A DNA stretch of 64,000 nucleotides from Nitrospirota bacterium (lineage in GTDB: Bacteria > Nitrospirota > JACRHJ01), in NCBI GenBank assembly GCA_021789495.1, contig JAJYJM010000007.1, forward strand, positions 10,230 to 74,229, in the 5' to 3' direction. The position numbers and the translations under genes were made by a program. Below the pieces are notes generated by a model. The model ran no database searches. It saw only the letters and a program-made list of their open reading frames with translations, and was not told where the DNA came from. Below are positions 9,463-39,289 of this stretch, one piece after another (the stretch's first letter is position 1; every line of letters starts with the position of its first letter).

Positions 9463-10014
9463 ATGGAACCGTACAAACTGCTCGAAAAATATTATTTCAC
9501 GAACTCCAGCACATACAGCTTCCTCGTAACGCACAGCAGGGCGGTTGCGGGCCTCGCGCTCAGGGCTGCGGAACGGGTAAAGCATTTGAACCCGGACTTG
9601 CAGTTCATAGAGGAGGCGGCGCTCCTGCACGACATCGCGATATTCAAGGTCAACGCGCCGAAAATCGGCTGCATCGGCCCGATGCTCTATGTCGAGCACG
9701 GCTACCTCGGACGCGAGCTGCTGGAGCAGGAAGGCTATCCCAGGCACGCGCTCGTCTGCGAGAGACACGTCGGTTGCGGATTATCTGCGGAGGACATACG
9801 GAAATACAGGCTCCCCCTGCCGGAGCGGGACATGATACCACTATCGCTGGAGGAAAAAATAATCTGCTGGGCGGACAAGTTTTTCTCCAAGGTCCCGCAC
9901 CGCCTGAAGGAAGAGAAACCGCTTGAGGCCGTCCGGGAAATGGTGTCGAACTACGGCGACGAACAACTAAAAAGGTTCGACGAGTGGCAGGCGATGTTCG
10001 GGCAGAAGTTATAG
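9463..10014 (+). CDS. HD/HDIG-domain phosphohydrolase
   Basis: 183-aa ORF with an ...LLHDIA... HD motif. Confidence 0.7.
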   Translation: MEPYKLLEKYYFTNSSTYSFLVTHSRAVAGLALRAAERVKHLNPDLQFIEEAALLHDIAIFKVNAPKIGCIGPMLYVEHGYLGRELLEQEGYPRHALVCERHVGCGLSAEDIRKYRLPLPERDMIPLSLEEKIICWADKFFSKVPHRLKEEKPLEAVREMVSNYGDEQLKRFDEWQAMFGQKL

Positions 10015-10033
10015 TGATAAAATGGATAGTATT

Positions 10034-10067
10034 AAAAAAAGCCCCCTTGTTCAGGGGGCTTTTGATT
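10034..10067. terminator. Bidirectional intrinsic terminator (AGCCCCC-loop-GGGGGCT flanked by A-run/T-run) between the convergent HD gene and rplQ
   Basis: Perfect 7-bp GC stem with A7 upstream and T-rich downstream. Confidence 0.8.
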
Positions 10068-10080
10068 TATCGGCTTTTAT

Positions 10081-10641
10081 TTATTCTTCCGGTTTCTTTT
10101 CTTCGGCGGGGGCCGGGGACTCGGCTTCGGCCTTTGCTTCCGCTTCGGCAGGAGCGGCGGCCTCAACCGGCGCGGCTTCTTCCTTCTTCTTCCTGCCGCG
10201 CTTCGGCTTCTCTGCGGCAACTTCTGCCGGGGCCGGGGCTGTCGCAACCGGAGCCGTTTCCTTTTTCGCCTTAGGCGCCGCGCCTTCCTTGTCAACAAGT
10301 TCTATTATCGCCATCGGCGCGGAATCTCCCAGGCGCACGCGGGACTTGATTACCCTCGTGTATCCGCCGTTACGCTCTGCGGAGCGGGGCGCAATCTCGC
10401 TGAATAGCTTCGCGACGACATCGCGGCTCTGGATGTAGGAGAACGCCATCCTTTTGGCGTTTAAGTCGCCCTTCTTGCCCAGGGTAATCATTTTGTCCGC
10501 GATGCCCCGGATTTCCTTGGCCTTCGCCTCGGTCGTCTCAATGTGCCCATGCTCCAAAAGCGAGGTCACGAGGTTCCTGAAAAGAGCCTTCCTATGGCTC
10601 GAATTCCTGCCGAACTGCCTTCCCGCAAGCCTGTGTCGCAT
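10081..10641 (-). CDS. rplQ: Ribosomal protein bL17 with an approximately 70-aa Ala/Pro/Glu/Lys-rich C-terminal tail
   Basis: N-terminal [24 protein letters not shown]... matches L17; the C-terminal tail is low-complexity AEAKAEA. Confidence 0.9.
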
Positions 10642-10659
10642 GAAATTATATCCTTCCCT

Positions 10660-11667
10660 TTATACGTTCTTCTGCAGCGACTTTTCGTACGCCTTGAGTT
10701 TTTCGTTGTCTATCTTCATCCCGAAGGAAAGCCCCATCTCCGTGAGGATTTCCTTTATTTCGTTTAGGGACTTCCTGCCGAAGTTCTTGGTCTTCAGCAT
10801 CTCGCCCTCGGACTTCTGAACCAAATCCGCGATGGTCTTTATGTTGGCATTCTTCAGGCAGTTAGCCGAGCGCACGGATAACTCAAGTTCGTTAACGCTC
10901 CTGAGGAGATTCTCGTTGAACTTGTCTTCGACTTCCTCCGCCTCGGTTTCTATAATCTCGCCCTCTTCCTCGAAGTTGATGAAGATGCCCAGATGATCTT
11001 TTAAAATTTTGGCAGCGTATGCGACCGCATCGTCCGGGCGGACGCTCCCGTCCGTAACAACTTCCATAATCAGTTTGTCGTAGTCGGTCTCCTGACCCAC
11101 GCGCGCGCTCTCCACCCAGTAGTTGACCTTCTGGATGGGAGAGTATATAGAGTCCACCGGGATAACGCCTATCGGCATATCAGGCTCTTTGTTTCTCTCG
11201 GAAGACACATAGCCGCGGCCCTTCTTCACGGTCATTTCTATCGTGAAGCGGGTGTCCTTGTCAAGCGTCGCTATCAGGAGGTCCGGGGTCAATATTTCGA
11301 TGTCCGCGTCCGTATCAATATGGGAGCCGTAGACCGCGCCGGGACCTTCAACGTCTATCGTGATGGTCTTCGGCTTGTCGATATGCATCTTGAAGCGGAG
11401 CTTCTTTATATTTAATATTATGTCCGTGACGTCTTCGACAACCCCCGGCACGGAAGAGAACTCGTGCAGGACGTTTTCTATCCTTATGGAGGTAACGGCG
11501 GCGCCTTCCAGCGAAGAGAGCAACACCCTGCGGAGCGAATTTCCGATGGTGGTGCCGAAACCACGCTCGAAGGGTTCCGCGCTGAACTTGCCGTAGGTAT
11601 TCGTCAGCGAATCCGCCTCGAACTCCAGCTTTTTGGGGATCTGGAATCCCTTTAGCTTCATTGTCAT
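10660..11667 (-). CDS. rpoA: DNA-directed RNA polymerase alpha subunit
   Basis: 335 aa with a conserved alpha N-terminal domain and C-terminal domain. Confidence 0.95.
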
Positions 11668-11742
11668 TAACCTCTCCTTGTCGGTTTCTTTAAAACTCTT
11701 AAAAGGGGGCCTGGAGCCTTATTGCCCCTGGCCTTTCCTTCT

Positions 11743-12369
11743 TTATTTCGAGTAAAGCTCGACTATGAGGTTCTCATTTATAGGCAATGCGATGTCCTCT
11801 CTCGAAGGCGCGGACAGGACTTTCCCTTTCAGGTTCTGTTTGTCCAGTTCCAGCCAGGCCGGCAGCCCTTTCCTATCCATAGCCGCCGACAGTTCCTGGA
11901 ACCTGAGCGACGCCTTGCTCTTATCGTTCAGGGCGATTTCGTCCCCTGTTTTCACGATATAGGAGGGTATGTTGACCATCCTGCCGTTGACCAGGAAGTG
12001 CCCGTGGGATACCAGCGCCCTCGCTTCTTTCCGGGATGCGCCAAGACCCAGTCTGAATATGACGTTATCGAGCCTGCGTTCAAGGAGCTGGAGCAGGTTT
12101 TCGCCCGTAACGCCCCTCATGCGGGCAGCCTTGAGATAATAGCCTCTGAACTGCTGTTCGAGGACGCCGTAAATCCGGCGAACTTTCTGCTTCTCGCGGA
12201 GCTGCACGCCGTAGTCCGATATCTTGGCCCGGCCCTGCCCGTGCTGTCCGGGTGCATAAGTCCTTCGCTCCACCGAGCATTTCTCGGTAAAGCAACGGTC
12301 GCCTTTCAAAAATAGCTTGATGGTCTCCCTCCTGCACTGCCTGCAGACAGGACCCGTATATCTCGCCAA
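11743..12369 (-). CDS. rpsD: Ribosomal protein uS4
   Basis: [15 protein letters not shown]... N-terminal zinc motif. Confidence 0.95.
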
Positions 12370-12418
12370 AATTTCCCTCCTGTGCGGGAGGACATGCAGG
12401 TCCTCCCTTACAATTTTT

Positions 12419-12446
12419 GTAGGGGCCGCCCCATGTGTCGGCCCTT
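12419..12446. repeat. Hairpin repeat family 2 copy (reverse orientation) in the rpsK-rpsD spacer
   Basis: GTAGGGGCCGCCCCATGTGTCGGCCC is approximately the reverse complement of the 12893 and 46376 copies. Confidence 0.6.
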
Positions 12447-12455
12447 AAATTTATG

Positions 12456-12848
12456 TTAAACCCTTCGCCTTTTAGGCGGTCGGCACCCGTTGTGCGGTAT
12501 GGGAGTAACGTCCCGTATCGCCGAAATATCCAGCCCTGCGGATTGAAGCGCCCTTATAGCTGATTCCCTCCCGGCGCCCGGCCCCTTCACCCAGACCTCA
12601 ACGCTCCTCATGCCCTGATCCATCGCCTTTTTCCCGGCGTTTTCAGAGGCCATCTGTGCGGCGAACGGAGTGCTCTTTCTGGAACCTTTGAAACCCTGGT
12701 TGCCGGCACTCGACCAGCATACTACGTTGCCGTTCTGGTCTGTTATGGATACTATTGTGTTGTTGAAGGATGCGAAGATATGCGCCACCCCTGTTGGGAT
12801 GTTCTTCTTATCCTTCTTCGGGCCGACTCTTTTGGTAGGTCCAGCCAT
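12456..12848 (-). CDS. rpsK: Ribosomal protein uS11
   Basis: 130-aa S11 match. Confidence 0.95.
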
Positions 12849-12892
12849 TTTACCTCCTATAATTGCTACCGATGTAAAACGGGGTCAAAACC

Positions 12893-12918
12893 GGGCCGAC
12901 ACGCGGTTCGGCCCCTAC
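12893..12918. repeat. Hairpin repeat family 2 copy (GGGCCGACACGCGGTTCGGCCCCTAC) in the rpsM-rpsK spacer
   Basis: Near-identical to 46376..46401. Confidence 0.7.
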
Positions 12919-12953
12919 TTTAAACATGTACAAATCTCGAACAGACTTTTTTA

Positions 12954-13331
12954 TTACTTCACGGCCTTTTTCTTGCCGGCGACGGTGCGTTTCGGCCCCT
13001 TGCGGGTGCGCGCGTTCGTCTTGGTCCTCTGGCCGCGGACAGGCATTCCGCGCCTGTGACGAAGGCCCCTGTAGCAGCCGATGTCCATAAGCCTTTTGAT
13101 GGCCATGGTGCGGTCCCTGCGAAGGTCGCCCTCAACCTTGAACGATCTGTCGATTACTTCCCTTAAGCGGTTCACCTCCGCCTCAGTAAGGTCCTTGACC
13201 CTCGTATCAGGGCTTACCCCCGCCTCTGCCAGGATTTTATGAGATGAGGCGCGTCCTATCCCGAAGATATAGGTAAGGCCTATCTCAATCCTTTTTTCTC
13301 TTGGCAGGTCAACGCCTGCAATCCTTGCCAA
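12954..13331 (-). CDS. rpsM: Ribosomal protein uS13
   Basis: [14 protein letters not shown]... Confidence 0.95.
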
Positions 13332-13353
13332 TGCACCCTCCTTGGGCCGGTTG

Positions 13354-13467
13354 TTAACCCTGCCGCTGTTTGTGTCTCGGGTTCACGCAAATGACCCGGA
13401 CTGTGCCTTTTCTTTTTATGATCTTGCATTTGTCGCAGATCTTTTTTACCGACGAACGGACTTTCAT
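13354..13467 (-). CDS. rpmJ: Ribosomal protein bL36 (37 aa; not in the supplied ORF track)
   Basis: Manual translation gives [37 protein letters not shown], the Zn-ribbon form of L36. Confidence 0.9.
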
Positions 13468-13560
13468 GGTTGAAACCTCTTATTTTAACCTGTGCGGGCA
13501 AACGACCTGTTGCGTAATATGCACCCGCTTTGATTGCCCAGGCCCCTCTGTCCAGCCCCT

Positions 13561-13779
13561 TTATTTAAACCTGTATGTTATCCTGCCCCTGGTCAAGTCG
13601 TAGGGGGAAAGCTCGACTGTAACCCTGTCGCCCGGAAGTATCTTGATGAAGTGCATCCTCATTTTCCCGGAAATATGAGCGAGCACAACATGTCCGTTGT
13701 CGAGCTCCACCCGGAACATCGCGTTCGGCAGGGTCTCGAGTATCTTGCCCTGCACCTCAATCGCGTCTTCCTTGGCCAT
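13561..13779 (-). CDS. infA: Translation initiation factor IF-1
   Basis: 72-aa S1-like fold, [15 protein letters not shown]... Confidence 0.95.
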
Positions 13780-13913
13780 TAGGTTCCTTTATTTTTCGGT
13801 CATTATGGCGCGGCCTCCAAGCATATTCTGGCCACCTGTCATTTTACGTCGCGGTCAATATTGCCGGCTCGTTCTCCGGCACGCAAGTACCTGCTTACAC
13901 CGAAACCGAGGAC

Positions 13914-14660
13914 TTATGCCGCCGTTAATATTACCGGCCCGCTTTCAGTAACCGCAATCGTATGCTCGAAATGGGCCGATGGCATTCGGTCTACCGTGAC
14001 GGCGGTCCAGCCGTCTTTCATAATGACCGTGCCGGATTTTCCCATGTTTATCATCGGCTCGATGGCAATCGTCATTCCCGCCTTAAGCCTTGGCCCCTGC
14101 CCCGGAGGGCCAAAATTCGGAACCTGCGGTTCCTCGTGCAGACTCCTGCCGATGCCGTGCCCGACAAACTCCCGGACTACCGAATACCCGAAGGACTCGC
14201 TGTATACCTGCACGGCGTTGGATATGTCCGAGACGCGATTGCCCGTAACGGCCTTTTCTATGCCCCTGTAAAGCGACGCTTCCGTCACTTCCAGGAGTTT
14301 CTTCAGCTCAGGCGATATATCGCCGACCGGGACAGTTATTGCGGCATCTCCGTAAAACCCGTCGACCACCGCGCCGAGATCCAATCCGATTATCTCGCCT
14401 TCCTTCAGAACCCTGCCGGAAGGTATCCCGTGCACCACAACTTCGTTAATAGATGCGCAAAGACTTTTGGGATAACCGAGGTAACCTTTAAACGCCGGTT
14501 TCCCGCCGTGTTTTATTATATATTCCTCGGCTGCCGCATCCAGGCTCTCGGTGGTTATGCCGGGCTTTATGGCCTCTCGAAGCCTCGCAAGCGCCCCGGC
14601 GACAATTCTGCACGCCGCCCGGATCCTCTCCACATCTTCCGACGACTTCAGGATTATCAC
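13914..14660 (-). CDS. map: Methionine aminopeptidase type I
   Basis: 248 aa with MetAP metal-ligand motifs. Confidence 0.9.
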   Translation of the reverse strand: MIILKSSEDVERIRAACRIVAGALARLREAIKPGITTESLDAAAEEYIIKHGGKPAFKGYLGYPKSLCASINEVVVHGIPSGRVLKEGEIIGLDLGAVVDGFYGDAAITVPVGDISPELKKLLEVTEASLYRGIEKAVTGNRVSDISNAVQVYSESFGYSVVREFVGHGIGRSLHEEPQVPNFGPPGQGPRLKAGMTIAIEPMINMGKSGTVIMKDGWTAVTVDRMPSAHFEHTIAVTESGPVILTAA

Positions 14661-14662
14661 TT

Positions 14663-15307
14663 CTATCCTTCGAGGGCCTTTACCATCCTGCTCAGGATGA
14701 CCTTCATGTCTCCGACACCGTCGATCGTCGCCAGCATGCCTTTGTTCTTATAATAACCGATAAGCGGCGCGGTAGAGGCCATATATACCTTCAGACGGTT
14801 CTTTATGGCTTCTTCCTTGTCGTCGTCCCTCTGGTAGAGTTCGCCGCCGCAGGAATCGCATACGCCTTCCTTCTTAGAGGGTTTGAACATGACATGGTAA
14901 CCCGCCTGGCAACTGCGGCATGTCCTGCGCCCGCCAAGCCTCTTTACAAGCTCGGAATCAGGCACTTCTATCGAAAGCACCTTGTCTATCGGCGTCTTCA
15001 TCTCGGCAAGGGCCTTGTCGAGCGCCTCCGCCTGTGGAACAGTCCTGGGAAAGCCGTCCAGTATATAGCCTTTTTTGCAATCGCTTTCCTTTAGGCGCTC
15101 CTTTACTATCCCGACCACTACAGAATCCGGGACGAGCTCGCCTTTATCCATATATTTCTTTGCCTCAAGACCAAGCGGCGTTTTATCCGCCAGGTTCTTT
15201 CGGAGGATGTCGCCGGTCGATATCTGGGGTATCCCGTATTTCTGAACCAAATCCTTCGCCTGAGTGCCTTTCCCGGCCCCCGGAGGGCCAAGCAATATAA
15301 TTCTCAT
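14663..15307 (-). CDS. adk: Adenylate kinase (Zn-lid form)
   Basis: MRIILLGPPGAGKGTQA... P-loop, and a CxxC...CxxC lid. Confidence 0.95.
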   Translation of the reverse strand: MRIILLGPPGAGKGTQAKDLVQKYGIPQISTGDILRKNLADKTPLGLEAKKYMDKGELVPDSVVVGIVKERLKESDCKKGYILDGFPRTVPQAEALDKALAEMKTPIDKVLSIEVPDSELVKRLGGRRTCRSCQAGYHVMFKPSKKEGVCDSCGGELYQRDDDKEEAIKNRLKVYMASTAPLIGYYKNKGMLATIDGVGDMKVILSRMVKALEG

Positions 15308-15314
15308 AATGGCT

Positions 15315-16609
<1,295 letters not shown>

Positions 16610-16613
<4 letters not shown>

Positions 16614-17056
16614 AGCTGTATTACCTCTGCGCGTCCGCCGACAGCTTCAATCTTCTGGACGGCGCTTTTGGAAAACTTATGAGCCTGCACCGTCACAGCC
16701 CTTTTCAGTTCGCCAAGGCCCAGCACCTTTATGCCGTCGCCAAGCTTCTTTATGACGCCCTGGTCGAAAAGGGCTTCCGGGCTTACCACGTCCACGCCTT
16801 CGAGCTTCGCTATGTCGCGGAGATTGACAAGGGCGTATTCCTTGCGGAAAATGTTGGTAAATCCGCGTTTCGGTATCCTTCTTATAAGCGGCATCTGTCC
16901 GCCCTCAAAACCGGGACCTTTCGCGCCGCCCGCACGGGACTTCTGTCCTTTTTCACCCCTGCATGCAGTCTGCCCGTGACCTGAACCGGGTCCCCTGCCT
17001 ACTCTTTTTCTGTTCTTCCTTGCCCCGGGATTAGGGGCCAGATCCTCTATCCTCAT
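16610..17056 (-). CDS. rplO: Ribosomal protein uL15
   Basis: 148 aa with a Gly/Arg-rich N-terminus. Confidence 0.95.
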
Positions 17057-17244
17057 CAGACCCCCTCCTCCACAATCTTTACCAGGTGCGATACTTTATT
17101 TACCATCCCGCGTATCTGCGGCGTATCCTGCCGTACGACCGTGCTGTTCATTTTTGTAAGTCCCAGACCGGCCAGGACTTTCCTGTGCTTTTCCGGATGA
17201 CCTATCGGGCTCCGCGTCAGTTTAACCTTTATATTTCCAGCCAT
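17056..17244 (-). CDS. rpmD: Ribosomal protein uL30
   Basis: Internal ATG gives MAGNIKVKLTRSPIG... Confidence 0.9.
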   Translation of the reverse strand: MAGNIKVKLTRSPIGHPEKHRKVLAGLGLTKMNSTVVRQDTPQIRGMVNKVSHLVKIVEEGV

Positions 17245-17265
17245 ATAATCTCCCACTCTCAAAAA

Positions 17266-17343
17266 CCTGGATTCCCGATTAAACCGTTCGGGAATAACGG
17301 ACACATTTTTCGGATTCCCGGCTGAATCATTCGGGAATGTCGA
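17266..17343. repeat. Two tandem degenerate copies of the dRS3-like palindromic element (ATTCCCG-N11/12-CGGGAAT) in the rpsE-rpmD spacer
   Basis: CCTGGATTCCCGATTAAACCGTTCGGGAATAACGG and CGGATTCCCGGCTGAATCATTCGGGAATGTCG. Confidence 0.7.
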
Positions 17344-17356
17344 AAAATGAACGCTG

Positions 17357-17366
17357 CCCCCCCCCC
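17357..17366. repeat. C10 homopolymer tract
   Basis: Ten consecutive C read directly, in the rpsE-rpmD spacer. Confidence 0.9.
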
Positions 17367-17434
17367 GGCCTATCTCCCATGAAACTCAGACCCATCTATC
17401 TTGCGCAATCGCCCTTATACAACTCCGGCCCTCT

Positions 17435-17935
17435 TTATGATGCTATCTCTTCCACAGCCTTGCCGCGAAGCCTGGCAACCTGCTCCAGGTTCCTTAGCTG
17501 CTTCAACCCCTCAAGAGTGGCCCTCGCCACATTGTGCGGATTGGAACTGCCGAGCGATTTTGACAATATATTGTGAACGCCCGCCACCTCAAGTATGGCC
17601 CTGACCGCTCCGCCCGCGATAAGCCCGGTACCTGGAGAAGCGGGTTTCAGGAGTACCTTTGCCGAACCGAAATGCCCCAGTGTCTCGTGCGGGATGGTCG
17701 TTTCCTTGAGCGCCATCTTAACCATGCTCTTTTTTGCGCGCTCGACCGCCTTCTGTATCGCAACAGGCACTTCGACGGCCTTCCCTTTGCCTATGCCGAC
17801 GCTGCCCTCGCCGTCGCCGACTACGACAAGCGCCGAAAAGGAGAACCTTCGCCCGCCTTTGACGACCTTGGCCACCCTGTTTATATGGATAACCTTGTCC
17901 TTGAAACTGGAGCCTTCGGCTTCGTACTTTTCCAA
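17435..17935 (-). CDS. rpsE: Ribosomal protein uS5
   Basis: 166 aa, ...[19 protein letters not shown]...; the ORF start is a TTG. Confidence 0.9.
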
Positions 17936-17946
17936 TTAATTCCTCC

Positions 17947-17981
17947 TGTCAAAAATCAGGCCAGCTTCCCCTCGCCGCGCC
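17947..17981. repeat. Degenerate duplicate of the rplR 3' end (direct repeat of 18029..18063)
   Basis: TGTCAAAAATCAGGCCAGCTTCCCCTCGCCGCGCC versus TGTCAAAAATTCAGACCGGCTTCTCTCGCCGCGTC. Confidence 0.7.
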
Positions 17982-18030
17982 TTTCGGCCATGTTCAGAAG
18001 CCGCCCTGCAACCGCCCTCTTGCCCCCTTG

Positions 18031-18399
18031 TCAAAAATTCAGACCGGCTTCTCTCGCCGCGTCGGCCAGGGCTTTAATCCTTCCGTGAAATATATATCCG
18101 CCCCTGTCGAAAATGACGTCTTTTACGCCCTTTTCAATGGCTTTTTTGGCTACTGCGGCTCCGACCTTCTTCGCCGCGTCTATATTGCCTTTGGACTTCA
18201 GGCCTTCCCTGACCTCTTTGTCGAGTGTGGACGAGGCGGTTATGGTAACGCCTTTTGCGTCGTCTATGACCTGGGCATAGATGTTAGAGGCGCTCCGGAA
18301 TACGTTCAGCCTGGGACGCAAGGCTGTTCCATGAACCTTTTTCCTGATCCTGTCCTGCCTTCTTTGCCTGCCGGCAAGCCTGTCGCTCGTGGAGCCCAT
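18031..18399 (-). CDS. rplR: Ribosomal protein uL18
   Basis: 122-aa L18 match. Confidence 0.95.
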
Positions 18400-18400
18400 G

Positions 18401-18937
18401 TTATTTACCCTTCTTCCCTTCCTTGTGGAGTATTGTCTCTTCGGCGTATTTTATGCCCTTGCCCTTGTAAGGCTCCGGCTTCCGAACCGCGCGGACGTTT
18501 GCGGCTACCTGCCCCAGGAGCTCCTTGTCGATGCTCGAAAGCTTTATGGTGGTCGCCTTGTCTACGGAAGCGGAAACGCCCTTGGGGAGTTCAAAGTTCA
18601 CGGGGTGAGAGAAGCCCATGTTGAGCACAAGGGCGCTGCCCTTCACTTCGGCTTTGTATCCCACGCCGTTTATTTCCAGAACCCTCTCAAAACCCTTTGT
18701 GACGCCGGAGACCATGTTGTTTATCAAGGTCCTGGTCAGCCCGTGGAGAGAGCGGTCTAACCTGTGGTCGGAAGCCCTTTCCACGATGATCAATTTCCCA
18801 TCATGCCGTATCGTCATCTTAGGGTTGAAATCCCTCACGAGTTCACCCTTCGGCCCCTTTACGCGCAGGTTGCTGCCGGAGAGCTTTACCTCAACGCCAG
18901 CCGGTATCTCCACGGGTTTTTTGCCTATCCTCGACAT
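18401..18937 (-). CDS. rplF: Ribosomal protein uL6
   Basis: 178-aa L6 match. Confidence 0.95.
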
Positions 18938-19027
18938 TTTATAACTCCCTCACCGGTTCCATCTATAATAAAGGTGATACGGCTTCTTCCCATTTACTTC
19001 GTTCAGGGCTTCGGCTCACTCGCTCAG

Positions 19028-19080
19028 AATGACAGCACGTTGTCGCATCCCCGCTTTGGCGGGAATGACGGGCGCAATGA
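19028..19080. repeat. Degenerate dRS3-like element in the rpsH-rplF spacer
   Basis: ...AGAATGACAGC...CCCCGCTTTGGCGGGAATGACGGGCGCAATGA shares the GCGGGAATGACGG arm and CGCAATG tail with the 41355 copy. Confidence 0.6.
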
Positions 19081-19145
19081 ATGTGCCTCTACTCTTACTT
19101 TAATCGGCTAATTTATTATACCTCACCCCGGCCCCATCGCCCGGA

Positions 19146-19544
19146 CTACCAGATGTAGCAGAGAATTTCGCCGCCGATATTCTTCTGCCGCGAGTCCCTG
19201 TCCACCATGACGCCTCTCGACGTGGATATGATTGCAACGCCAAGACCGCCCATCACACGGGGGATGTCATCGGCTCCCACATAGACACGGTTGCCGGGAC
19301 GGCTCACCCTCTTCAAGCCGTTTATGACCCTGATCTCGTCTGGGCTGTATTTCATATAGACCCGGACTATCCCCTGCTTGCGGTCCTTGAGAAGCTTGAA
19401 ATTCTTTATATATCCCTCTTCCTTCAGGACGCGGGCCAGTTCCAGTTTCAGGTTGGACGAAGGCACATCCACCTTCTCCTGTTTCGCCAGGTTGGCGTTT
19501 CTGATCCTGGTCAGCATATCAGCAATCGGGTCCGTCATTCCCAT
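19146..19544 (-). CDS. rpsH: Ribosomal protein uS8
   Basis: 132-aa S8 match. Confidence 0.95.
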   Translation of the reverse strand: MGMTDPIADMLTRIRNANLAKQEKVDVPSSNLKLELARVLKEEGYIKNFKLLKDRKQGIVRVYMKYSPDEIRVINGLKRVSRPGNRVYVGADDIPRVMGGLGVAIISTSRGVMVDRDSRQKNIGGEILCYIW

Positions 19545-19650
19545 CTTCCATTGCTCCTTTTTCGATATTTAATAAGACACCCGGAACTTGTCTTTCAGGC
19601 CGGAGGGCTTCCTTCATCTTCCGCCCCCGGTGCCGGCAGCCCGGAGGTCT

Positions 19651-19836
19651 TTACCAGCTCGCCTTTATCACTCCCGGTATCTCGCCCTTCAAGGAAAGCT
19701 CGCGGAAGCATATCCTGCACATTTCGAATTTCCGAAGGAAGCCCCTGGGCCTGCCGCAAATCTTGCAGCGGTTATATCCGCGGGTGGAGAACTTCGGCTC
19801 CCTTTTCTGCTTGGCTATGAGAGATTTCTTTGCCAA
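19651..19836 (-). CDS. rpsN: Ribosomal protein uS14 (type Z, zinc-binding, 61 aa)
   Basis: CKICGRPRG...CRICFRE motifs. Confidence 0.95.
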
Positions 19837-19846
19837 CTTCCTACCT

Positions 19847-19881
19847 CGCTATCAGTTTACGAAAGACATTCAAATGTGGCG
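19847..19881. repeat. Degenerate duplicate of the rplE 3' end (direct repeat of 19914..19949)
   Basis: CGCTATCAGTTTACGAAAGACATTCAAATGTGGCG versus CGCTATCAGTTTCTGAAAGGCATCCCGATATGGCGG. Confidence 0.6.
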
Positions 19882-19918
19882 ATATGTCCGCCTTTGCCGT
19901 GGCAACCCGCCCCCGCTA

Positions 19919-20461
19919 TCAGTTTCTGAAAGGCATCCCGATATGGCGGAGCAGCGCCTTGCCCTCCTCGTCCGTACTGGCGCTGGTTACGATGGAAATA
20001 TCCATCCCATGCACCATCTCTACCTTGTCGTAGTCTATCTCCGGAAATATGAACTGCTCCTTAAGGCCGAGGGTGTAGTTTCCCCTGCCGTCGAAGGCCT
20101 TTCCCGATACGCCCTTGAAATCGCGTATGCGTGGCAGGGCGACGTTCAAGAGTCTGTCGAGGAACTCCCACATGCGGTCCCGCCTGAGGGTTACGGAACA
20201 CCCGACAGACATCCCCTCGCGGAGCTTGAACGCGGCAATGGACTTCTTGGCCTTCTTCACTACGGCCTTCTGGCCAGTTATATCGCCAATCTCCTTCACC
20301 GCCCCATCCATAAGCTTCGGGTTCTGTATTGCCTCGCCCAGGCCCACGTTCACGACAACCTTCACAACCCTTGGGACCTGCATGACGTTCTCGAACCCGA
20401 ATTCCTTCATCAGGGCCGGCGTTATCTCTTTTTCGTATTTTTCCTTGAGCCTTGCCGCCAT
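19919..20461 (-). CDS. rplE: Ribosomal protein uL5
   Basis: Internal ATG gives [22 protein letters not shown]..., preceded by a GGAGG SD. Confidence 0.95.
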
Positions 20462-20480
20462 TTTATAAAAAACCTCCAGT

Positions 20481-20801
20481 TCAAACCTTGTCCATGGGGC
20501 TGCCGCACTTCTTGCAGACGCGAACCTTCTTCTCGCCCTCGAAGCTGTGGGAAACCCTGGTGTTTTTGCCGCACTTGGGACAAACGAGCATGACATTTGA
20601 AACATGAAGCGGGGCTTCCTTCTCTATTATCCCGCCCTGCCGGTTGGTCGAGGTCGGGCGGGTATGCCGCTTGACTATGTTCAGCTTCTCCACGAGCAGG
20701 CGGTCTTCCTTGGAGAGCACCCGGTATACCCTCCCCGTCTTGCCTTTTTCCTTGCCGGCGATGACCATCACCGTATCGTTTTTCTTTATATTTACGCCCA
20801 T
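20481..20801 (-). CDS. rplX: Ribosomal protein uL24 with a C-terminal CxxC...CxxC motif
   Basis: KOW N-terminus ([15 protein letters not shown]), and a C-terminal CPKCG...CKKCG. Confidence 0.9.
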
Positions 20802-20814
20802 CCTGATAGCCCCC

Positions 20815-21183
20815 TTATAGCACTTCCGGCGCCAGTGAAATTATCTTCATAAAGTTCTTCCAACGGAGCTCTCTTGCGACCGGACCGAATATGCGGGTGC
20901 CAATGGGCTCCCTCTGGTTATTTATCAAGACCGCAGCGTTCTTGTCGAACTTTATATACGAACCGTCGTTCCTTCTGACTTCCTTCGACGTCCTCACAAC
21001 GACCGCTTTCGCCACCTTACCCTTTTTGGCGGTGCCTTCGGGAATGGCCTCCTTTATGGAGACGATGATGATGTCCCCGACCGTGGCATAGTGCCTCCGG
21101 GTTCCGCCGATCACTTTTATGCACATTACCTTTTTGGCGCCGGAATTGTCCGCAACATCCAACATAGTCTGGACCTGGACCAT
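20815..21183 (-). CDS. rplN: Ribosomal protein uL14
   Basis: 122-aa L14 match. Confidence 0.95.
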
Positions 21184-21205
21184 GATTAACCTCTCCCTTC
21201 AGGCC

Positions 21206-21454
21206 TTATCCGGCCTTTTCTATTACCTCTACGACTTCAAATCGTTTATCCTTGGAAAGCGGCCTGGTCTCGGCCACCCTGACGGTATCGCCGATTGCGC
21301 ACTCGTTCTTTTCGTCATGGGCCTTCAAGCGGGCTACGCGGCTTACTATCTTTTTGTAGACCGGGTGCGGCACTCTCCTCGTGACCCTGACGACGACCGT
21401 CTTGTCCATCTTGTCGCTTACGACTTCTCCAACGAATGTCTTATTTTCGGCCAT
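21206..21454 (-). CDS. rpsQ: Ribosomal protein uS17
   Basis: 82-aa S17 match. Confidence 0.95.
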
Positions 21455-21504
21455 CAGCCTTATCCTCCGGGGATAATCCCCACTATCTTAATCCAGTATT
21501 TTAA

Positions 21505-21538
21505 ATCCCTGGATTCCCGCTTTCGCGGGAATGACGTC
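21505..21538. repeat. dRS3-like palindromic element (core ATTCCCGCTTTCGCGGGAAT) in the rpmC-rpsQ spacer
   Basis: CCCTGGATTCCCGCTTTCGCGGGAATGACGTC; the core at 21513..21532 is a perfect 8-bp inverted repeat with a 4-nt loop. Confidence 0.85.
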
Positions 21539-21562
21539 TTTATAAGCTTCGCGCCTCCGGGA

Positions 21563-21757
21563 TCAGCCCCCGATTTCCTTCTCTTTAAGAACGGTCTTTA
21601 TTCGCGCAATGTCCCTTTTTACGTCGCGTATGCGCATCGGGTTTTCTATGTCGCCCATAGCAAGCTGGAAACGCAGGTTGAACCGCTCCTTGTCCAGGTC
21701 GGAAAGCTTCGACTTAAGCTCCTCCGGCGAAAGGTCTTTTATTTCGGATGCCTTCAC
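21563..21757 (-). CDS. rpmC: Ribosomal protein uL29
   Basis: 64-aa L29 match. Confidence 0.95.
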
Positions 21758-22173
21758 AGCAGTCCTCCTTCCCTGGACACGAACCGGGTAGCGACCGGAA
21801 GCTTGTGCGCGGCGAGCCTGAGCGCCTCTCTCGCCACTTCTTCCGGCACGCCCGCCATTTCGTATATTATACGGCCAGGCTTCACGACGGATACCCAGTA
21901 TTCCGGAGCGCCTTTCCCCTTGCCCATCCTCGTCTCGGCGGGCTTTTTGGTTATGGGCTTGTCCGGGAATATCCGGATCCAGATCTTACCGCCCCTCTTT
22001 ACGTGGCGGGTCATGGCGATACGGGCGGCCTCTATCTGGGCGCTCGTCACCCAGCCAGGCTCGAGGGCCTTCAGGCCGAACTCGCCGAAGCTTATATCCC
22101 CGCCTCGCCAGGCCTTCCCGTTCATGGTGCCTTTCTGCTTCTTCCTGTATTTGACTTTCTTCGGCGCTAACAT
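21754..22173 (-). CDS. rplP: Ribosomal protein uL16
   Basis: 139-aa L16 match. Confidence 0.95.
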
Positions 22174-22255
22174 TTACAACTCCCGATTATGTCCGGTGAA
22201 AATCTCGTGTGTCAGCCATCTGCGAATTATGTTACACCCGGTGCCCACCGACCGG

Positions 22256-22897
22256 TTATACCGCCGCCGCTTCGCCCAGGATGTCGCCCTTGTATATCCA
22301 GACCTTGACGCCTATCTGTCCGTATGTCGTCTTGGCCTCGGCAAAACCGTAGTCTATGTCCGCCCTTATGGTATGAAGCGGCACTCTGCCCTCCCTGTAC
22401 CACTCGGAGCGGGCTATTTCGGCGCCCGCCAGTCGCCCGGCACATGCTATTTTTATCCCCTGCGCTCCGAACCGAAGCGAAGAGGTTACGGACTTTTTCA
22501 TCGCGCGACGGAAGGCGATCCTGCGTTCAAGCTGAAGGGCTATATTCTCCGCCACGAGCTGGGCATCCATCTCCGGCTTTCTTATTTCCATGATATTTAT
22601 ATAGACCTGCTTGCCGGTCTGGTCCTCAAGCTCTTTTTTGAGCTTGTCCACCTCGGCGCCTTTTTTGCCGATAATGATGCCGGGGCGTGCGGTGTGGATA
22701 TTGACTTTTATCCTGCTGCCCGCGCGCTCGACGTCTATCTTGCCGACCCCCGCGTGAAATAGCTTCGCCTTAACGACCTTGCGGAGCCTTAAGTCTTCGT
22801 GCAGGTACTCGCCATATTCCTTTCTGGCAAACCAGCGCGAACTCCAGGTCTTTATGACGCCAAGCCTGTAACCGACTGGATGGACTTTCTGGCCCAA
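22256..22897 (-). CDS. rpsC: Ribosomal protein uS3
   Basis: 213-aa S3 with a KH domain. Confidence 0.95.
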
Positions 22898-22926
22898 ACG
22901 CTCACCTCCGATTATTCTCTTTTGCC

Positions 22927-23259
22927 TTATTCATCGCCCAGCACCAGGGTAATATGGCTGGAACGCTTCCGTATGATGTTGGCCCTGCCCATTGCACGGG
23001 GCATAACCCTCTTCAAGACCGGTCCCTGGTCCACGAATGCCGCTTTCACTTTGAGCCTGTCCACGTCCGATACATTTTTCTGTTCCGCATTGGCTATGGC
23101 GGATTTCAGCAGTTTCTCGACTACGCGGGACGCATGCTGGGGCATGAACTTAAGCATATTCATGGCCTCACCGACCTTCCTGCCCCGTATGACGTCAATT
23201 ACAAGCCGCGCCTTTCTTGGCGTGACTCTTATAAACTTTGCCTTTGCAGTGGCTTCCAT
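22927..23259 (-). CDS. rplV: Ribosomal protein uL22
   Basis: 110-aa L22 match. Confidence 0.95.
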
Positions 23260-23274
23260 CGGAATCCGACCCCT

Positions 23275-23577
23275 TTAACCTTGTTTTGCCGTCCCCGGCC
23301 CCGTCGTTGTTTTCTTCTCGGTCCCGCCGTGGCCCTTGAACTGCCTCGTGGGCGCAAATTCGCCCAGTTTATGGCCAATCATATTCTCGGTGACATAAAC
23401 CGGGATAAATTTTTTCCCGTTATGCACGGCCAGCGTATGGCCTATGAACTCCGGAACGACCATGCTGCTCCTGGACCAGGTCTTAAAGATTTTCTTTTCC
23501 CCGGCCTCGTTCATCTTTGCTACCTTAGTCAGCAGGCTTTCCTGGACGTAAGGCCCCTTGTTTACCGATCTTGGCAC
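23275..23577 (-). CDS. rpsS: Ribosomal protein uS19
   Basis: 100-aa S19 match. Confidence 0.95.
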
Positions 23578-23607
23578 AGCGCTCCTCCTGAAAAATCAGC
23601 CCTTAAA

Positions 23608-24426
23608 CTACTTCCTCTTCTTGACGATAAACTTGTCCGCATTCCTGCTCTTCCTGGTCTTGACGCCTTCCGGCTTGCCCCAGGGCGAGCATGGCGGCCT
23701 TCCGCCGGACGACCGGCCTTCTCCGCCGCCGAGGGGATGGTCTACCGGGTTCATCGCGACGCCCCTGACCTTCGGTCTCTTGCCGAGCCAACGGGAACGT
23801 CCGGCCTTGCCCAGGGAGATGTTCTCGTGGTCGATGTTGCTGACCTGTCCGATGGACGCCTTGCAGTCCATAAGAACCATCCGCACCTCGCCGGACGGGA
23901 GCCGAAGCTGAGCGTATTTGCCTTCCTTGGCCATGAGCTGAGCATACGAACCCGCGCTCTTTACCATCTGTCCGCCGCCGCCGACTCTCATCTCAACGTT
24001 ATGAACCTGAGTCCCAAAAGGGATGTTGCGAAGCGGCAGGCAGTTGCCCGGAAGTATGTCCGCCTCCGGCCCCGACATTACATTGTCGCCTGCCTTAAGC
24101 CCCACAGGCGCAATTATATAGCGCTTTTCACCGTCCGCATAATGCAAAAGCGCAATCCTGGAACTCCTGTTCGGGTCGTACTCTATACTCGCCACCTTTG
24201 CGGGTATCCCGTCCTTATCCCGCTTGAAGTCGATTATCCTGTAGGCCCGCTTGGAGCCGCCGCCGCGCCTGCGGACCGTTATCCTGCCGTAGGAGTTCCT
24301 GCCCGCGCTCTTGGAATAGACCTTTACAAGGCCCTTTTCAGGCTCTTTTTTGGTGATGTCCTCGAAGGTGTCCACGGTCTGGAAACGCCTTGCCGGAGAG
24401 GTCGGTTTATATGATTTTATAGCCAT
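23608..24426 (-). CDS. rplB: Ribosomal protein uL2
   Basis: 272-aa L2 match. Confidence 0.95.
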
Positions 24427-24501
24427 TTAACGTATGCCCCCAAAGCCTGTTCCACGCCCAAAACACTATAGCGCCGCCGGCGCCGCTCCCACTTTGCCCG
24501 C

Positions 24502-24795
24502 TTATTTCACGCCTTCGAGGTACTCGACGGTCTGGCCTTCCTTCAGCGTGATAACCGCCTTTTTCCAGTCCGAACGCACGCCCTGGCGCGCTCCCAGACG
24601 CTTTCTTTTACCCTTGAAAACCATGGTGCGCACTTCGTCCACCTTCACCTTGAAGACGGCTTCGACCGCGTTCTTTATCTCTATTTTGTTTGCATCGGGA
24701 GAAACCTGAAGCACTATCTTGTTCTGGCTCTCCTTCAGCTTTGAACCCTTTTCTGTAATCAGGGGTTTCTTTATAATTTCGTAGATGCCTTTCAT
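24502..24795 (-). CDS. rplW: Ribosomal protein uL23
   Basis: Internal ATG gives MKGIYEIIKKPLITEK...; ATGA overlap with the rplD stop. Confidence 0.9.
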   Translation of the reverse strand: MKGIYEIIKKPLITEKGSKLKESQNKIVLQVSPDANKIEIKNAVEAVFKVKVDEVRTMVFKGKRKRLGARQGVRSDWKKAVITLKEGQTVEYLEGVK

Positions 24796-25415
24796 GAAAG
24801 CGCCTCCTGGAGCTTCTCCAACGACTCCCTGTCCGAAAGCAGATTCTTGTATTTCAGGAGGTCGTAGATATTTATATTCTCCACGCGGCATACCTTCACG
24901 CTTGGGATATTCCGCGCCGCAAGATATATGTTTCTGTCCGTGCCGGCAGTTAAAACAAGCGTCGTCCCGGTAAGGCCCAGCGAGGAAAAGAGCGCGGCTG
25001 CGACCTTGGTTTTGGGCTCCCCGACCGCCAGTTTGTCCATGACGAAAAGCTCTCCGTCCGCAACCTTGGCTGACAACACCGCCGCAAGCGCCGCCCTTGA
25101 CGCCTTTTTGGGCATGGCGTAGGAATAATCCCTCGGATGCGGCCCGAATATTATGCCGCCATGCCTCCAAAGCCCCGACCTCGAAGACCCCGCGCGGGCA
25201 CGGCCCGTCCCTTTCTGCCGGTAGGGCTTTACACCACCACCGCTGACGAAATGGCGCGTCTTCGTCTCCGACGTGCCCTGACGGGCATTCGCCCTCTGCA
25301 TCAGGAAAGCTTCATGCACGAGGCCCGGATTAACCTTTACCCCGAAAACATCGTCTGAAAGGTTAATGTTTCCCGTCTTCTGTTTTCTTGAATCTATTAT
25401 ATCTACCGACGGCAT
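24792..25415 (-). CDS. rplD: Ribosomal protein uL4
   Basis: 207-aa L4 match. Confidence 0.95.
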   Translation of the reverse strand: MPSVDIIDSRKQKTGNINLSDDVFGVKVNPGLVHEAFLMQRANARQGTSETKTRHFVSGGGVKPYRQKGTGRARAGSSRSGLWRHGGIIFGPHPRDYSYAMPKKASRAALAAVLSAKVADGELFVMDKLAVGEPKTKVAAALFSSLGLTGTTLVLTAGTDRNIYLAARNIPSVKVCRVENINIYDLLKYKNLLSDRESLEKLQEALS

Positions 25416-25483
25416 CCTTGTATCTCCCTGGAGCTGCTTTTATTTTTTAGCTTCACGAACAGGCCAACGCCAAAAGTCACTGG

Positions 25484-25510
25484 GTTCCAGCCTTCGCGGG
25501 AATGACGGGG
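25484..25510. repeat. Degenerate half-copy of the dRS3-like element in the rplC-rplD spacer
   Basis: ...CCAGCCTTCGCGGGAATGACGGGG carries the GCGGGAATGACGG arm. Confidence 0.5.
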
Positions 25511-25543
25511 TTTATAAATCAGGCCCGCCCCCATTCCGGCCCC

Positions 25544-26161
25544 TTATATTTTGTTAACGATAACTATCCCGCCGGGCGAACCCGGTACTGCGCCTTTGAC
25601 CAGCAGGATATTATCCTGTGCCTTTATATCGACCACTTCCAGGCCGCGGGTGGTAACACTCCCGTTGCCCATATGGCCGGGAAGCCTCTTGTTCTTCCAG
25701 ACCCTGGACGGCCATGCCGATGACCCTATGCCTCCCGGTTCCCTGTGGAACATCGAGCCGTGGGTCGCGCGCCCGCCCTTGAAGTGGTGGCGCACGATGA
25801 CGCCCTGGAAGCCCTTGCCCCTTGACGTACCCATTACGGATACCTTGTCGCCCCTTGCGAATATTTCCACGGTCACTTTTGAACCCGGCTCCATATCGGA
25901 TGTGTCGCCATGAAATTCCCGGAGGTGCCTGTAGGACGCAGTGCCCGCCTTCTTGAAATGACCTGTCATGGGCTTGTTTGCCTTGCTCTCCCTTATCTCA
26001 AGGAAACCTATCTGCACTGCATCGTAGCCGTCCGACGGGACCGTCTTTTTCTGGACTACCGCGCACGGCCCGGCCTCTATTACCGTAACAGGCGTAACGC
26101 GTCCATCGTCCGTGAATATCTGGGTCATCCCCAGCTTCTTTCCTATTATGCCGCTTATCAT
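25544..26161 (-). CDS. rplC: Ribosomal protein uL3
   Basis: 205-aa L3 match. Confidence 0.95.
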
Positions 26162-26463
26162 AACTTTATCTCCACATCAACGCCGGCGGAAAGATCCAGT
26201 TTCATAAGCGCGTCAACGGTTTGCGGCGTAGGGTCCAGGATGTCGATAAGGCGCTTGTGTGTTCTTATCTCAAACTGCTCGCGTGATTTTTTGTCCACAT
26301 GGGGAGACCTGAGCACGGTGTACCTGTTTATTTTCGTGGGCAACGGCACCGGGCCGGACACCCGCGCGCCGGTTCTCTTCGCCGTATCCACTATCTCGGT
26401 AACCGACTGGTCAAGCAGCCTGTGGTCGTAGGCGTTCAGCCTTATCCTTATTTTCTGTGCCAC
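26158..26463 (-). CDS. rpsJ: Ribosomal protein uS10
   Basis: 101-aa S10 match. Confidence 0.95.
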
Positions 26464-26470
26464 GTCAACC

Positions 26471-27670
26471 TCACTCTATTATATCCGCGACGACGCCGGC
26501 GCCGACGGTTCTGCCGCCTTCGCGTATGGCGAAACGGAGTTCCTTCTCGCACGCTATCGGCGTGATAAGATCCACTTCCATCGAAACATTATCGCCCGGC
26601 ATCACCATCTCCACTCCATCGGGAAGCTTCACGACTCCCGTCACGTCCGTCGTCCGGAAGTAGAACTGAGGACGATACCCGTTGAAGAAAGGAGTGTGCC
26701 TGCCGCCCTCTTCCTTCGTCAGGATATACGCCTCCGCCTTGAACTTCGTGTGCGGCGTGATCGACTTGGGCTTCGCGAGAACCATACCGCGCTCAACCTC
26801 TTCCTTCTTCGTGCCGCGAAGAAGAACCCCAATGTTGTCGCCCGCCTGGCCCTGGTCGAGAAGCTTCCGGAACATCTCCACGCCCGTAACGATCGTCTTC
26901 TGCGTGTCCCGTATGCCGACTATCTCGACCTCGTCGCCGACCTTCACAATGCCGCGCTCAACCCTGCCCGTTACGACAGTGCCGCGTCCCGAAATCGTGA
27001 ACACGTCCTCCACAGGCATCAAAAACGGCTTATCTATCGCGCGCTCCGGCGTCGGAATGTAGCTGTCAACCGCGTCCATCAGATCCCAGATGCACTTATA
27101 CTCAGCCGCGGCAGGGTCCGTGGACGCAGACTCAAGAGCCTTCAGCGCGCTCCCCTTCACGATGGGTATGTCGTCGCCCGGAAACTCATACTTGCTTAAG
27201 AGCTCCCTAAGCTCAAGCTCCACAAGCTCGAGTAACTCAGGGTCGTCCACCATGTCAACCTTGTTCATGAACACCACTATATATGGAACGCCGACCTGAC
27301 GCGCAAGAAGTATGTGCTCCCGCGTCTGCGGCATCGGACCGTCCGCAGCAGAAACAACCAGTATCGCGCCGTCCATCTGCGCCGCGCCCGTTATCATGTT
27401 CTTCACGTAGTCCGCATGGCCGGGGCAGTCGACGTGAGCATAGTGACGGTTCCCCGTCTCATACTCCACGTGAGCAGTCGCTATCGTTATGCCGCGCTCA
27501 CGCTCCTCAGGAGCCTTGTCTATCTGGTCGAATGCCGTAAACTTCGCCTGACCCTTCGTCGCAAGCGTCTTCGTTATCGCCGCCGTCAACGTCGTCTTAC
27601 CGTGATCTACATGACCTATCGTCCCAACATTGACATGCGGCTTCTTCCTCTCAAACTTCTCCTTTGCCAT
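26471..27670 (-). CDS. tuf: Elongation factor Tu (copy 1)
   Basis: 399 aa, [27 protein letters not shown]...; ATG start verified. Confidence 0.98.
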
Positions 27671-35240: not shown

Positions 35241-35250
35241 ACCGGGTTTC

Positions 35251-39222: not shown

Positions 39223-39289
39223 CTGCTCTCCTTGATTTTTAAGCTGTGCCCCTCATTTTAAGGGCTGTTTTTACTCATACCATTTAAGA

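Follow-up and report, generated by a model that had tools for sequence, protein, structure and literature searches.

The ribosomal protein (r-protein) and RNA polymerase operons of one Nitrospirota lineage appear to have accumulated non-essential DNA in the form of small hairpin repeats and short duplications. We base this reading, to which we assign a probability of roughly 0.72, on a 64,000-nucleotide (nt) stretch of a Nitrospirota metagenome-assembled genome (MAG; GenBank assembly GCA_021789495.1, contig JAJYJM010000007.1, positions 10,230 to 74,229; hereafter ‘the window’). Here, spacers that are compact in related genomes are enlarged, and several of them hold a copy of the NTS (Neisseria Transformation Sequence), a short oriented hairpin repeat. 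The enlarged junctions would be selfish repeats and small duplications that the operons tolerate, rather than regulators.

The window contains the str, S10, spc and alpha r-protein operons as well as the L11/L10/rpoBC cluster, all on the minus strand, and junctions are denoted upstream gene>downstream gene, as read on the minus-strand mRNA; unless another strand is given, all features discussed below lie on the minus strand. For a general comparison we used the same genes annotated in ~165 loci from diverse bacteria, with about 100-150 loci available per junction. Relatives from the same clade were retrieved via a protein database and exact-protein look-ups: for S10/spc, these are L001 and L166-L171 (77-92% L6 identity, with 84-92% for the close relatives and 77% for L171), and for rplK, rplA, rplJ and rpoBC they are L176, L177 and L178 (at 94%, 92% and 81% L1 identity). 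Related MAGs are GCA_027328825.1, which has NTS copies, GCA_021784575.1, GCA_049801375.1 and GCA_054636175.1. A scan of metagenome contigs with L6 was of no use as a source of relatives, returning only sequences of ≤60% identity.

A preliminary description of the window had singled out five enlarged spacers, and both the positions and the gene names that it gave are correct, as are the sizes. The rpsE>rpmD spacer (17245-17434) is 190 nt long, as compared to 9-13 nt in five relatives; across diverse bacteria the median is 14 nt and the maximum 92 nt (n=124), so that none reaches 190 nt. The rpsH>rplF spacer (18938-19145) measures 208 nt (61-123 nt in relatives; median of 26 nt across diverse bacteria, 3% of which attain 208 nt), rpmC>rpsQ (21455-21562) 108 nt (18-25 nt in relatives; median 18 nt, with 3% attaining 108 nt) and rplC>rplD (25416-25543) 128 nt (22-52 nt in close relatives and 97 nt in the more distant L171; median 23 nt, with 2% attaining 128 nt). 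The medians of the four S10/spc junctions agree with the assertion that these junctions are normally a few base pairs long. The ten proteins flanking the five junctions are covered end to end by NCBIfam equivalog models, and the gaps are therefore real and do not reflect mis-called gene ends. Since the relatives are compact at the four S10/spc junctions, these four are, as judged by comparative sequence analysis, lineage-specific expansions of ~90-180 nt. The fifth spacer, rplK>rplA (41243-41432, 190 nt), is not expanded when set against its relatives: it measures 182, 185 and ~195 nt in those at 94%, 92% and 81% L1 identity, and it is equally long in L176 and L178, both of which lack the repeat at this position. 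For this junction, the very observation that the preliminary description had named as refuting its claim has thus been made.

On the mRNA-sense strand, the core of the repeat reads GTCATTCCCGCGAAAGCGGGAATCCAG. The NTS is a 28-nt sequence, CGTCATTCCCGCGMAVGCGGGAATCYRG, that contains the classic dRS3 palindrome, and the 94-amino-acid GIY-YIG nuclease SsnA binds and cleaves it as single-stranded DNA only, and on one strand only; such strand-specific binding and cleavage of single-stranded DNA has been reported for the Neisseria and Wolbachia enzymes (Nat Commun 2025, PMC11893778). NTS-like ‘Ssn-related motifs’ (SRM) are found beside ssn homologues across phyla, and NTS-ssnA-NTS has been proposed to be a present or past mobile unit comparable to REP/RAYT (PMC11893778). 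That study allowed one mismatch to the 28-mer; in the window, six sites match it within two mismatches, four of them within one, and two exactly. A 27-mer search allowing ≤3 mismatches yielded six matches as compared to 0.00 expected from shuffled sequences, and the published SRM pattern, HGTCWYN(0-2)YYVSBRHN(0-5)WNVSBRGN(0-2)RNCYNB, has five matches in the window, all of them at NTS copies. The label ‘dRS3-like’, under which the repeat was initially described, is thus right at the sequence level: two copies, at 21513-21532 and 40436-40455, have the exact dRS3 structure (ATTCCC-N8-GGGAAT), whereas the others have stem mismatches or a 13-nt spacing (two matches with N13). Alignment of 13 copies from the window and its relatives gave the 35-nt consensus CCGTCATTCCCGCGAAAGCGGGAATCCAGGAATTT. 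The stem columns are conserved, and so are the asymmetric flanks, 5′ GTCAT and 3′ CCAGG (the 3′ flank of the copies being CCAGGAATTT), which give the element an orientation. Among the 13 aligned copies we found no compensatory stem changes; a conserved stem without compensatory change has the look of young mobile-repeat copies and not that of a selected RNA. These matches make the repeat a genuine NTS/SRM family member, found in a new host and at an unusual location.

Each of the five spacers holds a copy, as had been claimed, although the quality is uneven, ranging from exact through one, two and four mismatches to two variants with an 11-nt loop. The exact copy lies in rpmC>rpsQ (21509-21536; 8-bp stem with a GAAA loop, -13.6 kcal/mol). 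The copy in rplK>rplA (41363-41390) has one mismatch, that in rplC>rplD (25480-25507) two and the degenerate copy in rpsH>rplF (19043-19070; CGTCATTCCCGCCAAAGCGGGGATGCGA) four. The rpsE>rpmD spacer holds both long-loop variants, each with a 7-bp stem and in mRNA-sense orientation: variant a at 17310-17342 (CGACATTCCCG-11 nt loop-CGGGAATCCGA; -12.7 kcal/mol) and, 43 nt downstream, variant b at 17266-17299 (CGTTATTCCCG-11 nt loop-CGGGAATCCAGG; -12.0 kcal/mol). Variant b is possibly a local duplicate of variant a, and Tandem Repeats Finder did not detect the two as an array, as they are too diverged. The longest rpmD open reading frame (ORF; 17056-17304) runs 20 codons upstream into an NTS copy (MSVIPERFNRESRF...). 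Three further copies lie elsewhere in the window: a second exact one in rplA>rplJ (40432-40459), one with two mismatches between two plus-strand genes for branched-chain amino-acid permeases (56803-56830, antisense to the local mRNA), and, as the sole plus-strand copy, one with one mismatch (46331-46358) in a 600-nt gap that separates a SpoU methylase gene from a tRNA cluster. The element is therefore not specific to particular genes. That expansion coincides with repeat insertion, as initially proposed, holds in so far as all four expanded spacers contain the repeat; it does not hold as a full account, since the repeat makes up 28-35 nt of expansions of 90-180 nt and several expanded junctions are free of NTS. 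The remaining inserted sequence comprises a second palindrome family, a G10 tract, G-rich boxes and possible decayed duplications. The G10 tract (17357-17366; C10 on the plus strand) lies in the rpsE>rpmD spacer, reads as ten consecutive G in the mRNA sense and is potentially slippage-prone.

The distribution of the repeat among relatives is patchy and suggests repeated, independent insertion. In these operons the window has seven NTS copies, L166 has one (in rpsH>rplF), L170 has one after rplQ, L171 has two long-loop variants (in rplF>rplR and map>infA) and L177 has two (in rplK>rplA and rplA>rplJ); we found none in the loci of L001, L167, L168, L169, L176 and L178. The same sequence is present in Neisseria, Azospirillum, sphingomonad, Legionella, Francisella, Aeromonas and Photobacterium replicons. 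Insertions into r-protein operons are uncommon, as the preliminary description had stated: among the ~165 spc/S10 loci only this clade has them. N. gonorrhoeae (L175, NZ_CP119140.1) has an NTS-rich genome, but its S10/spc/alpha cluster has no NTS or dRS3 between rpsJ and rplF, and NTS pairs lie a few kb further downstream in the fetched locus. A copy inside an operon is possible elsewhere, as illustrated by Legionella adelaidensis (L174, 4000-4027), where an NTS-like sequence occupies atpB>atpE in sense orientation; a dozen inserts in core translation operons are unusual. The L174 and L175 records, labelled ‘plasmid’, are in fact chromosomal sequence.

Given that the source is a MAG and that the repeat is identical to a Neisseria sequence, one could suspect mis-assembly, a chimeric join or contamination of the Neisseria type. 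We consider this extremely improbable. The same spacers are present, letter for letter, in as many as four independent assemblies (an NCBI MAG, two assemblies at ENA, and Logan assemblies built from separate runs) and are therefore no assembly artefacts; a contig of MAG GCA_027340465.1 encodes an identical L6, as do the ENA and Logan assemblies. The source samples are represented by runs SRR13178631 and SRR13170410 and by ENA ERZ27233565 and ERZ27236914. Furthermore, the flanks are contiguous Nitrospirota genes, and related MAGs have diverged copies at other junctions. The closest species-level genome in GTDB is likewise a Nitrospirota MAG, with an L6 identity of 85%.

The rplK>rplA junction provides a filled and an empty version of the same site. 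Relative to L176, the window has a clean insertion of ~32 nt without any duplication: the empty site of L176 reads ...CATTGCGCCCGCCA | TCTCTGGAAAC, with CCGCCA|TCTC at the insertion point, while the filled site of the window reads ...CATTGCGTCCGTCA, followed by the inserted TTCCCGCGAAGGCGGGTATCCAGGAATTTGGT and then TCTCCGGAAAC. Even before the insertion, the target sequence was similar to the 5′ arm of the element. The copies in rpsH>rplF and rplK>rplA have ~22 nt of 5′ flank in common (19043-19082 versus 41363-41402; family D3, 86% over 36 nt). As this flank is present at rplK>rplA of L176 without the NTS, it is native to that junction, and one copy event seems to have carried the upstream flank along, a suggestion drawn from this single case.

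The length of the rplK>rplA spacer is accounted for by a conserved leader-like structure. Common to all four genomes (the window and L176-L178) is a hairpin, CUCCGGA...UCCGGAG, followed by GGCGGGAGA upstream of rplA, which together look like a leader or an autoregulatory structure. The rplA>rplJ spacer similarly contains a leader-like region (40322-40543) with AGUCGAAGACAGCAGGAGGGGC ... CCUUAAUUGGCC ... GUCCCGCCGAGACGA upstream of rplJ, kept down to 81% identity, and the exact NTS copy occupies a variable part of it. Neither leader-like structure matches any Rfam model. The conserved regions upstream of rplA and rplJ are candidate L1 and L10 autoregulatory sites of the clade. The rpsZ>rpsH spacer (19545-19650, ~100 nt) is also long in five of the seven clade genomes (96-142 nt), and its 3′ part is conserved (GTCTTATTAAATATCGAAAAAGGAGCAATGGAAG), which is more in keeping with a conserved element ahead of rpsH than with a recent insertion.

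All NTS copies inside the r-protein and RNA polymerase operons of the window and its relatives have their forward strand on the coding strand, amounting to about 9-10 independent sense sites and no antisense ones. Outside these operons, both copies run antisense to the transcription around them, but one shares the absolute strand of the operon copies, so that a transcription-linked and a replication-linked bias are inseparable in this window. Two causes of the strict sense orientation are conceivable: the RNA may be under selection, or the insertion mechanism may be strand-specific.

Selection at the RNA level would make the hairpins functional RNA that tunes r-protein stoichiometry through autoregulation, RNase processing, a barrier to 3′ exonucleases or uncoupling. 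In addition to the uniform sense orientation in these operons, this view can draw on the stability of the hairpins: NTS cores are predicted to fold into 8-bp hairpins of -9 to -20 kcal/mol, several of them capped by GAAA, a GNRA loop. Two copies lie within the conserved leader-like regions, and REP hairpins in E. coli stabilise upstream mRNA segments. We nonetheless consider such a function unlikely. The identical 28-nt sequence recurs in unrelated contexts, one of them between permease genes and another near tRNAs; relatives at 84-94% identity lack it at the orthologous junctions; and the stem lacks compensatory variation. Whole spacers are barely more structured than shuffled sequence (z of -0.3 to -2.7). 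At gathering thresholds, only tRNAs passed in an Rfam search, and a search at E up to 1 over 10000-26500 and 39200-42700 found nothing relevant, with no family explaining any spacer.

It is more improbable still that the hairpins are internal terminators or attenuators, or that the inserts bring in internal promoters that split the operons. The stems are G+C-rich, some inserts contain TATAAT-like words (such as GGTATAAT in rpsH>rplF) and there is one promoter-like hit in the rpsC>rplP spacer. Against this, no copy has a U-run after its stem, a consensus scan found no terminator-like site on the minus strand at NTS copies, and the counts in the window show no excess over shuffled sequences (13 promoter-like hits versus 11.3 +/- 3.7 and 27 terminator-like hits versus 20.7 +/- 5.4). 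Ending transcription within essential operons would, moreover, be deleterious. Every downstream gene keeps its own Shine-Dalgarno sequence, and the last 10-20 nt of the spacers, with GGAGG-like Shine-Dalgarno sequences, are unpaired in predicted folds. The inserts most likely leave transcription continuous, with independent initiation replacing tight translational coupling.

The NTS is not the only source of added length. At least seven further junctions, beyond those listed in the preliminary description, are enlarged as compared to relatives, and none of these holds an NTS: rplE>rpsZ (19837-19918; 82 nt versus 12-16), rplR>rpsE (17936-18030; 95 nt versus 12-13), map>infA (13780-13913; 134 nt versus 7-19 in close relatives), infA>rpmJ (13468-13560; 93 nt versus 12-48), rpsM>rpsK (12849-12953; 105 nt versus 31-53 in close relatives), rpsK>rpsD (12370-12455; 86 nt versus 34-41) and rpoB>rpoC (35113-35250; 138 nt versus 37-39, with the rpoC start corrected to TTG at 35112 as in relatives). 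The longest rpoC ORF is over-extended by 20-21 codons upstream of this TTG.

In four of these spacers (rplR>rpsE, rplE>rpsZ, map>infA and infA>rpmJ), the final 14-40 nt of the upstream gene, together with its stop codon, are present a second time as a decayed copy located directly upstream of the ancestral Shine-Dalgarno segment. The copy of the last ~40 nt of rplR, with its TGA (17949-17990), scores 38 as compared to a null maximum of 26 (z 9.8); the copies of the last 30 nt of rplE including TGA (19852-19881) and the last 28 nt of map including the stop (13844-13871) reach z 6.5 and 4.9, respectively, and the copy in infA>rpmJ (13480-13493) is 14 nt long. A decayed gene-end copy is also found in the rplW>rplB spacer of L166. 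Overall, gene-end copies at z ≥ 4 occur in 7 of the 48 long clade spacers and in 3 of 517 long spacers of other bacteria. Real and pseudo copies end in the same derived, lineage-specific TGA stop, and it is on the pseudo branch that most of the differences have arisen. Together, these two observations indicate duplication in situ (of ~66-82 nt) followed by decay, and they rule out the import of functional 3′ gene ends by homology-facilitated illegitimate recombination, in which case the pseudo-copy would be the former gene end. An imperfect 11-nt direct repeat, TTCGACAGGGG and TTTGACAGGAG, delimits the duplicated unit at rplR. Duplications that span the 3′ end of a gene leave both genes intact, which may be why it is these that are seen.

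Other repeats add to the remaining spacers. A second palindrome family, GGGCCGACACnnGGGnCGGCCCC(TAC), is present in both orientations, with one copy in each of two alpha-operon junctions, rpsK>rpsD (12422-12444, minus strand) and rpsM>rpsK (12893-12915, plus strand), and further copies at 46376-46398, 20 nt from an NTS copy, and in L171 (17279-17302). Two GTCATTGCGAG hairpin elements face each other head to head in the rpoB>rpoC spacer. In rpsH>rplF, a second type of hairpin repeat (19021-19033; GTCATTCTGAGCG...) starts immediately downstream of the NTS, and the same word is found in L170. Finally, long clade spacers (in the window, L001 and L166-L171) have a G-rich box after the stop codon, for example GGGGCnnGnGGGC: G makes up 44% of the first 25 nt of long spacers, versus 29% of the remaining spacer sequence and 25% in other bacteria, and a GGG..GGG motif is present in 23 of 48 clade spacers versus 8 of 510 elsewhere. 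This box may in part be a relic of the ancestral Shine-Dalgarno sequence.

These observations invite a different order of events, in which the spacers grew first, by local duplications and indels under relaxed compactness, and the NTS arrived as a secondary passenger. Six or seven expanded junctions are NTS-free, four of them with statistically supported decayed gene-end copies that arose in situ; the NTS of rpmC>rpsQ is embedded in sequence that, on either side, is similar to the real 3′ end of rpmC; and L171 has many long spacers without any NTS. Yet when the NTS was removed from the NTS-bearing spacers and the remainder tested for gene-end duplication, similarity to the upstream gene ends was not significant (z 1.6 or lower), and the NTS in rplK>rplA is a clean 32-nt insertion without duplication. 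We therefore hold this order of events only tentatively, as the less likely one, albeit the most serious competitor of the reading that we favour.

According to that favoured reading, in which non-essential DNA accumulates in the r-protein and RNA polymerase operons of this lineage, at least two independent processes would operate. In the first, NTS/SRM copies (the ~35-nt oriented hairpin of the consensus) would land repeatedly and independently in intergenic spacers, mobilised by an Ssn-type enzyme much as REP is by a RAYT transposase. In the second, duplications of ~66-82 nt that include the upstream 3′ end and stop codon would yield an intact gene followed by a decaying pseudo-end, and the other palindrome families would add further length. 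The inserts would be near-neutral, with mRNA-stabilising or processing side effects at most. They would be tolerated because the downstream genes have Shine-Dalgarno sequences of their own and a hairpin without a U-tract would not terminate transcription.

In some other genomes, an ssn gene accompanies the repeat. Using a consensus query, we recovered SsnA genes in N. gonorrhoeae and Aeromonas: the former has a single small GIY-YIG gene, encoding SsnA of 94 amino acids (MQPAVYILASQRNGTLYIGVTSDLVQRIYQHREHLIEGFTSRYNVTMPVWYELHPTMESAITREKQLKKWNRAWKLQLIEENNVSWRDLWFDII), embedded in a dense array of alternating NTS copies, and the Aeromonas homologue has an NTS on both flanks. The Ssn-NTS association is thus real in general. 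We detected no GIY-YIG domain and no RAYT-like or Y1 transposase gene among the ORFs of the 64-kb window by Pfam, and no ssn near the NTS in plasmid-labelled regions of Sphingomonas, Francisella and Legionella.

Several results weigh against the selfish-repeat account. No ssn gene was found by tblastn (with N. gonorrhoeae SsnA, the Aeromonas homologue and the consensus as queries) in the window or in ~170 kb of clade loci. The NTS core explains just 28-35 nt of each 90-180-nt expansion, and the test for duplicated gene ends was not significant in the very spacers that bear it. The strict sense orientation is not what pure neutrality predicts, and the G-rich boxes after stop codons might indicate a function. 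The sense orientation, the recurrent insertion into the most highly transcribed operons, the gene-end duplications and the G-rich boxes could all be footprints of one single active process: where operons are heavily transcribed, an Ssn-type nuclease would attack the exposed non-template (or lagging-template) strand, repair of the breaks would insert hairpins and produce templated duplications, and the hairpins might then be co-opted to uncouple or stabilise segments of r-protein mRNA. We regard this unified scheme as a speculative and rather improbable one.

Comparison with known systems places the repeat closest to NTS/Ssn of Neisseria, with which it shares the 28-nt sequence, the hairpin, the asymmetric flanks (5′ CGTCAT, and C after the palindrome) and a multi-copy, intergenic distribution. 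It differs in its host, a Nitrospirota MAG, in the solitary copies, as opposed to the alternating arrays around N. gonorrhoeae ssnA, and in its location inside r-protein and RNA polymerase operons, all in sense orientation, while the S10/spc operons of N. gonorrhoeae are without any. Unlike the neisserial NIME, the copies form no mosaic units bracketed by alternating dRS3, being solitary and of a single strand orientation in the operons. The REP/BIME-RAYT systems of Enterobacteria and Pseudomonas are alike in their short oriented palindromes spread through intergenic and intra-operonic spacers, in a likely single-stranded DNA mechanism and, at rpoB>rpoC, in the head-to-head GTCATTGCGAG pair, which resembles a REPIN doublet; REP/BIME also have possible side effects on mRNA stability. 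They differ in belonging to another sequence family and in the candidate enzyme, which here is GIY-YIG and not Y1/HUH, and NTS copies occur here as singlets. Correia elements (CREE) and MITEs are likewise small non-autonomous repeats within operons. The 785-nt rpsJ>rplC gap of N. gonorrhoeae (L175, 6420-7204) contains a Correia element along with DNA uptake sequences, which shows that r-protein operons can tolerate such inserts. Correia elements are ~100-155 bp long, with terminal inverted repeats and a TA duplication, whereas the NTS core of the window is 28-35 nt and has neither terminal inverted repeats nor a consistent short target duplication.

Three features of the window lie apart from the enlarged junctions. 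Its two tuf genes are 99% identical over the 300 nt compared (26464-26763 versus 43104-43403), with further identical stretches, which is consistent with gene conversion between them. At 3743-3847, five in-register 21-nt tandem units (GGCGCACTGAACGACCTCGGC) lie within a minus-strand ORF of 450 amino acids without a Pfam match. Lastly, a gene for a ParE-family toxin at 58305-58792 is paired with a small upstream ORF, and the two likely form a toxin-antitoxin pair.

For genome annotation, elements of this kind matter in that they yield spurious ORFs, as in the N-terminally extended rpmD (82 aa) and rpoC, and fragment assemblies. The NTS/Ssn system, described only in 2025, is extended here to a Nitrospirota lineage without cultured members, in which the repeat is preserved base for base. 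The filled and empty pairs, the uniform orientation and the 32-nt insertion at a CCGCCA target are clues to how the hairpin moves. Finally, the most compact and translationally coupled of operons can absorb a dozen insertions and duplications within a divergence corresponding to ~90% r-protein identity.

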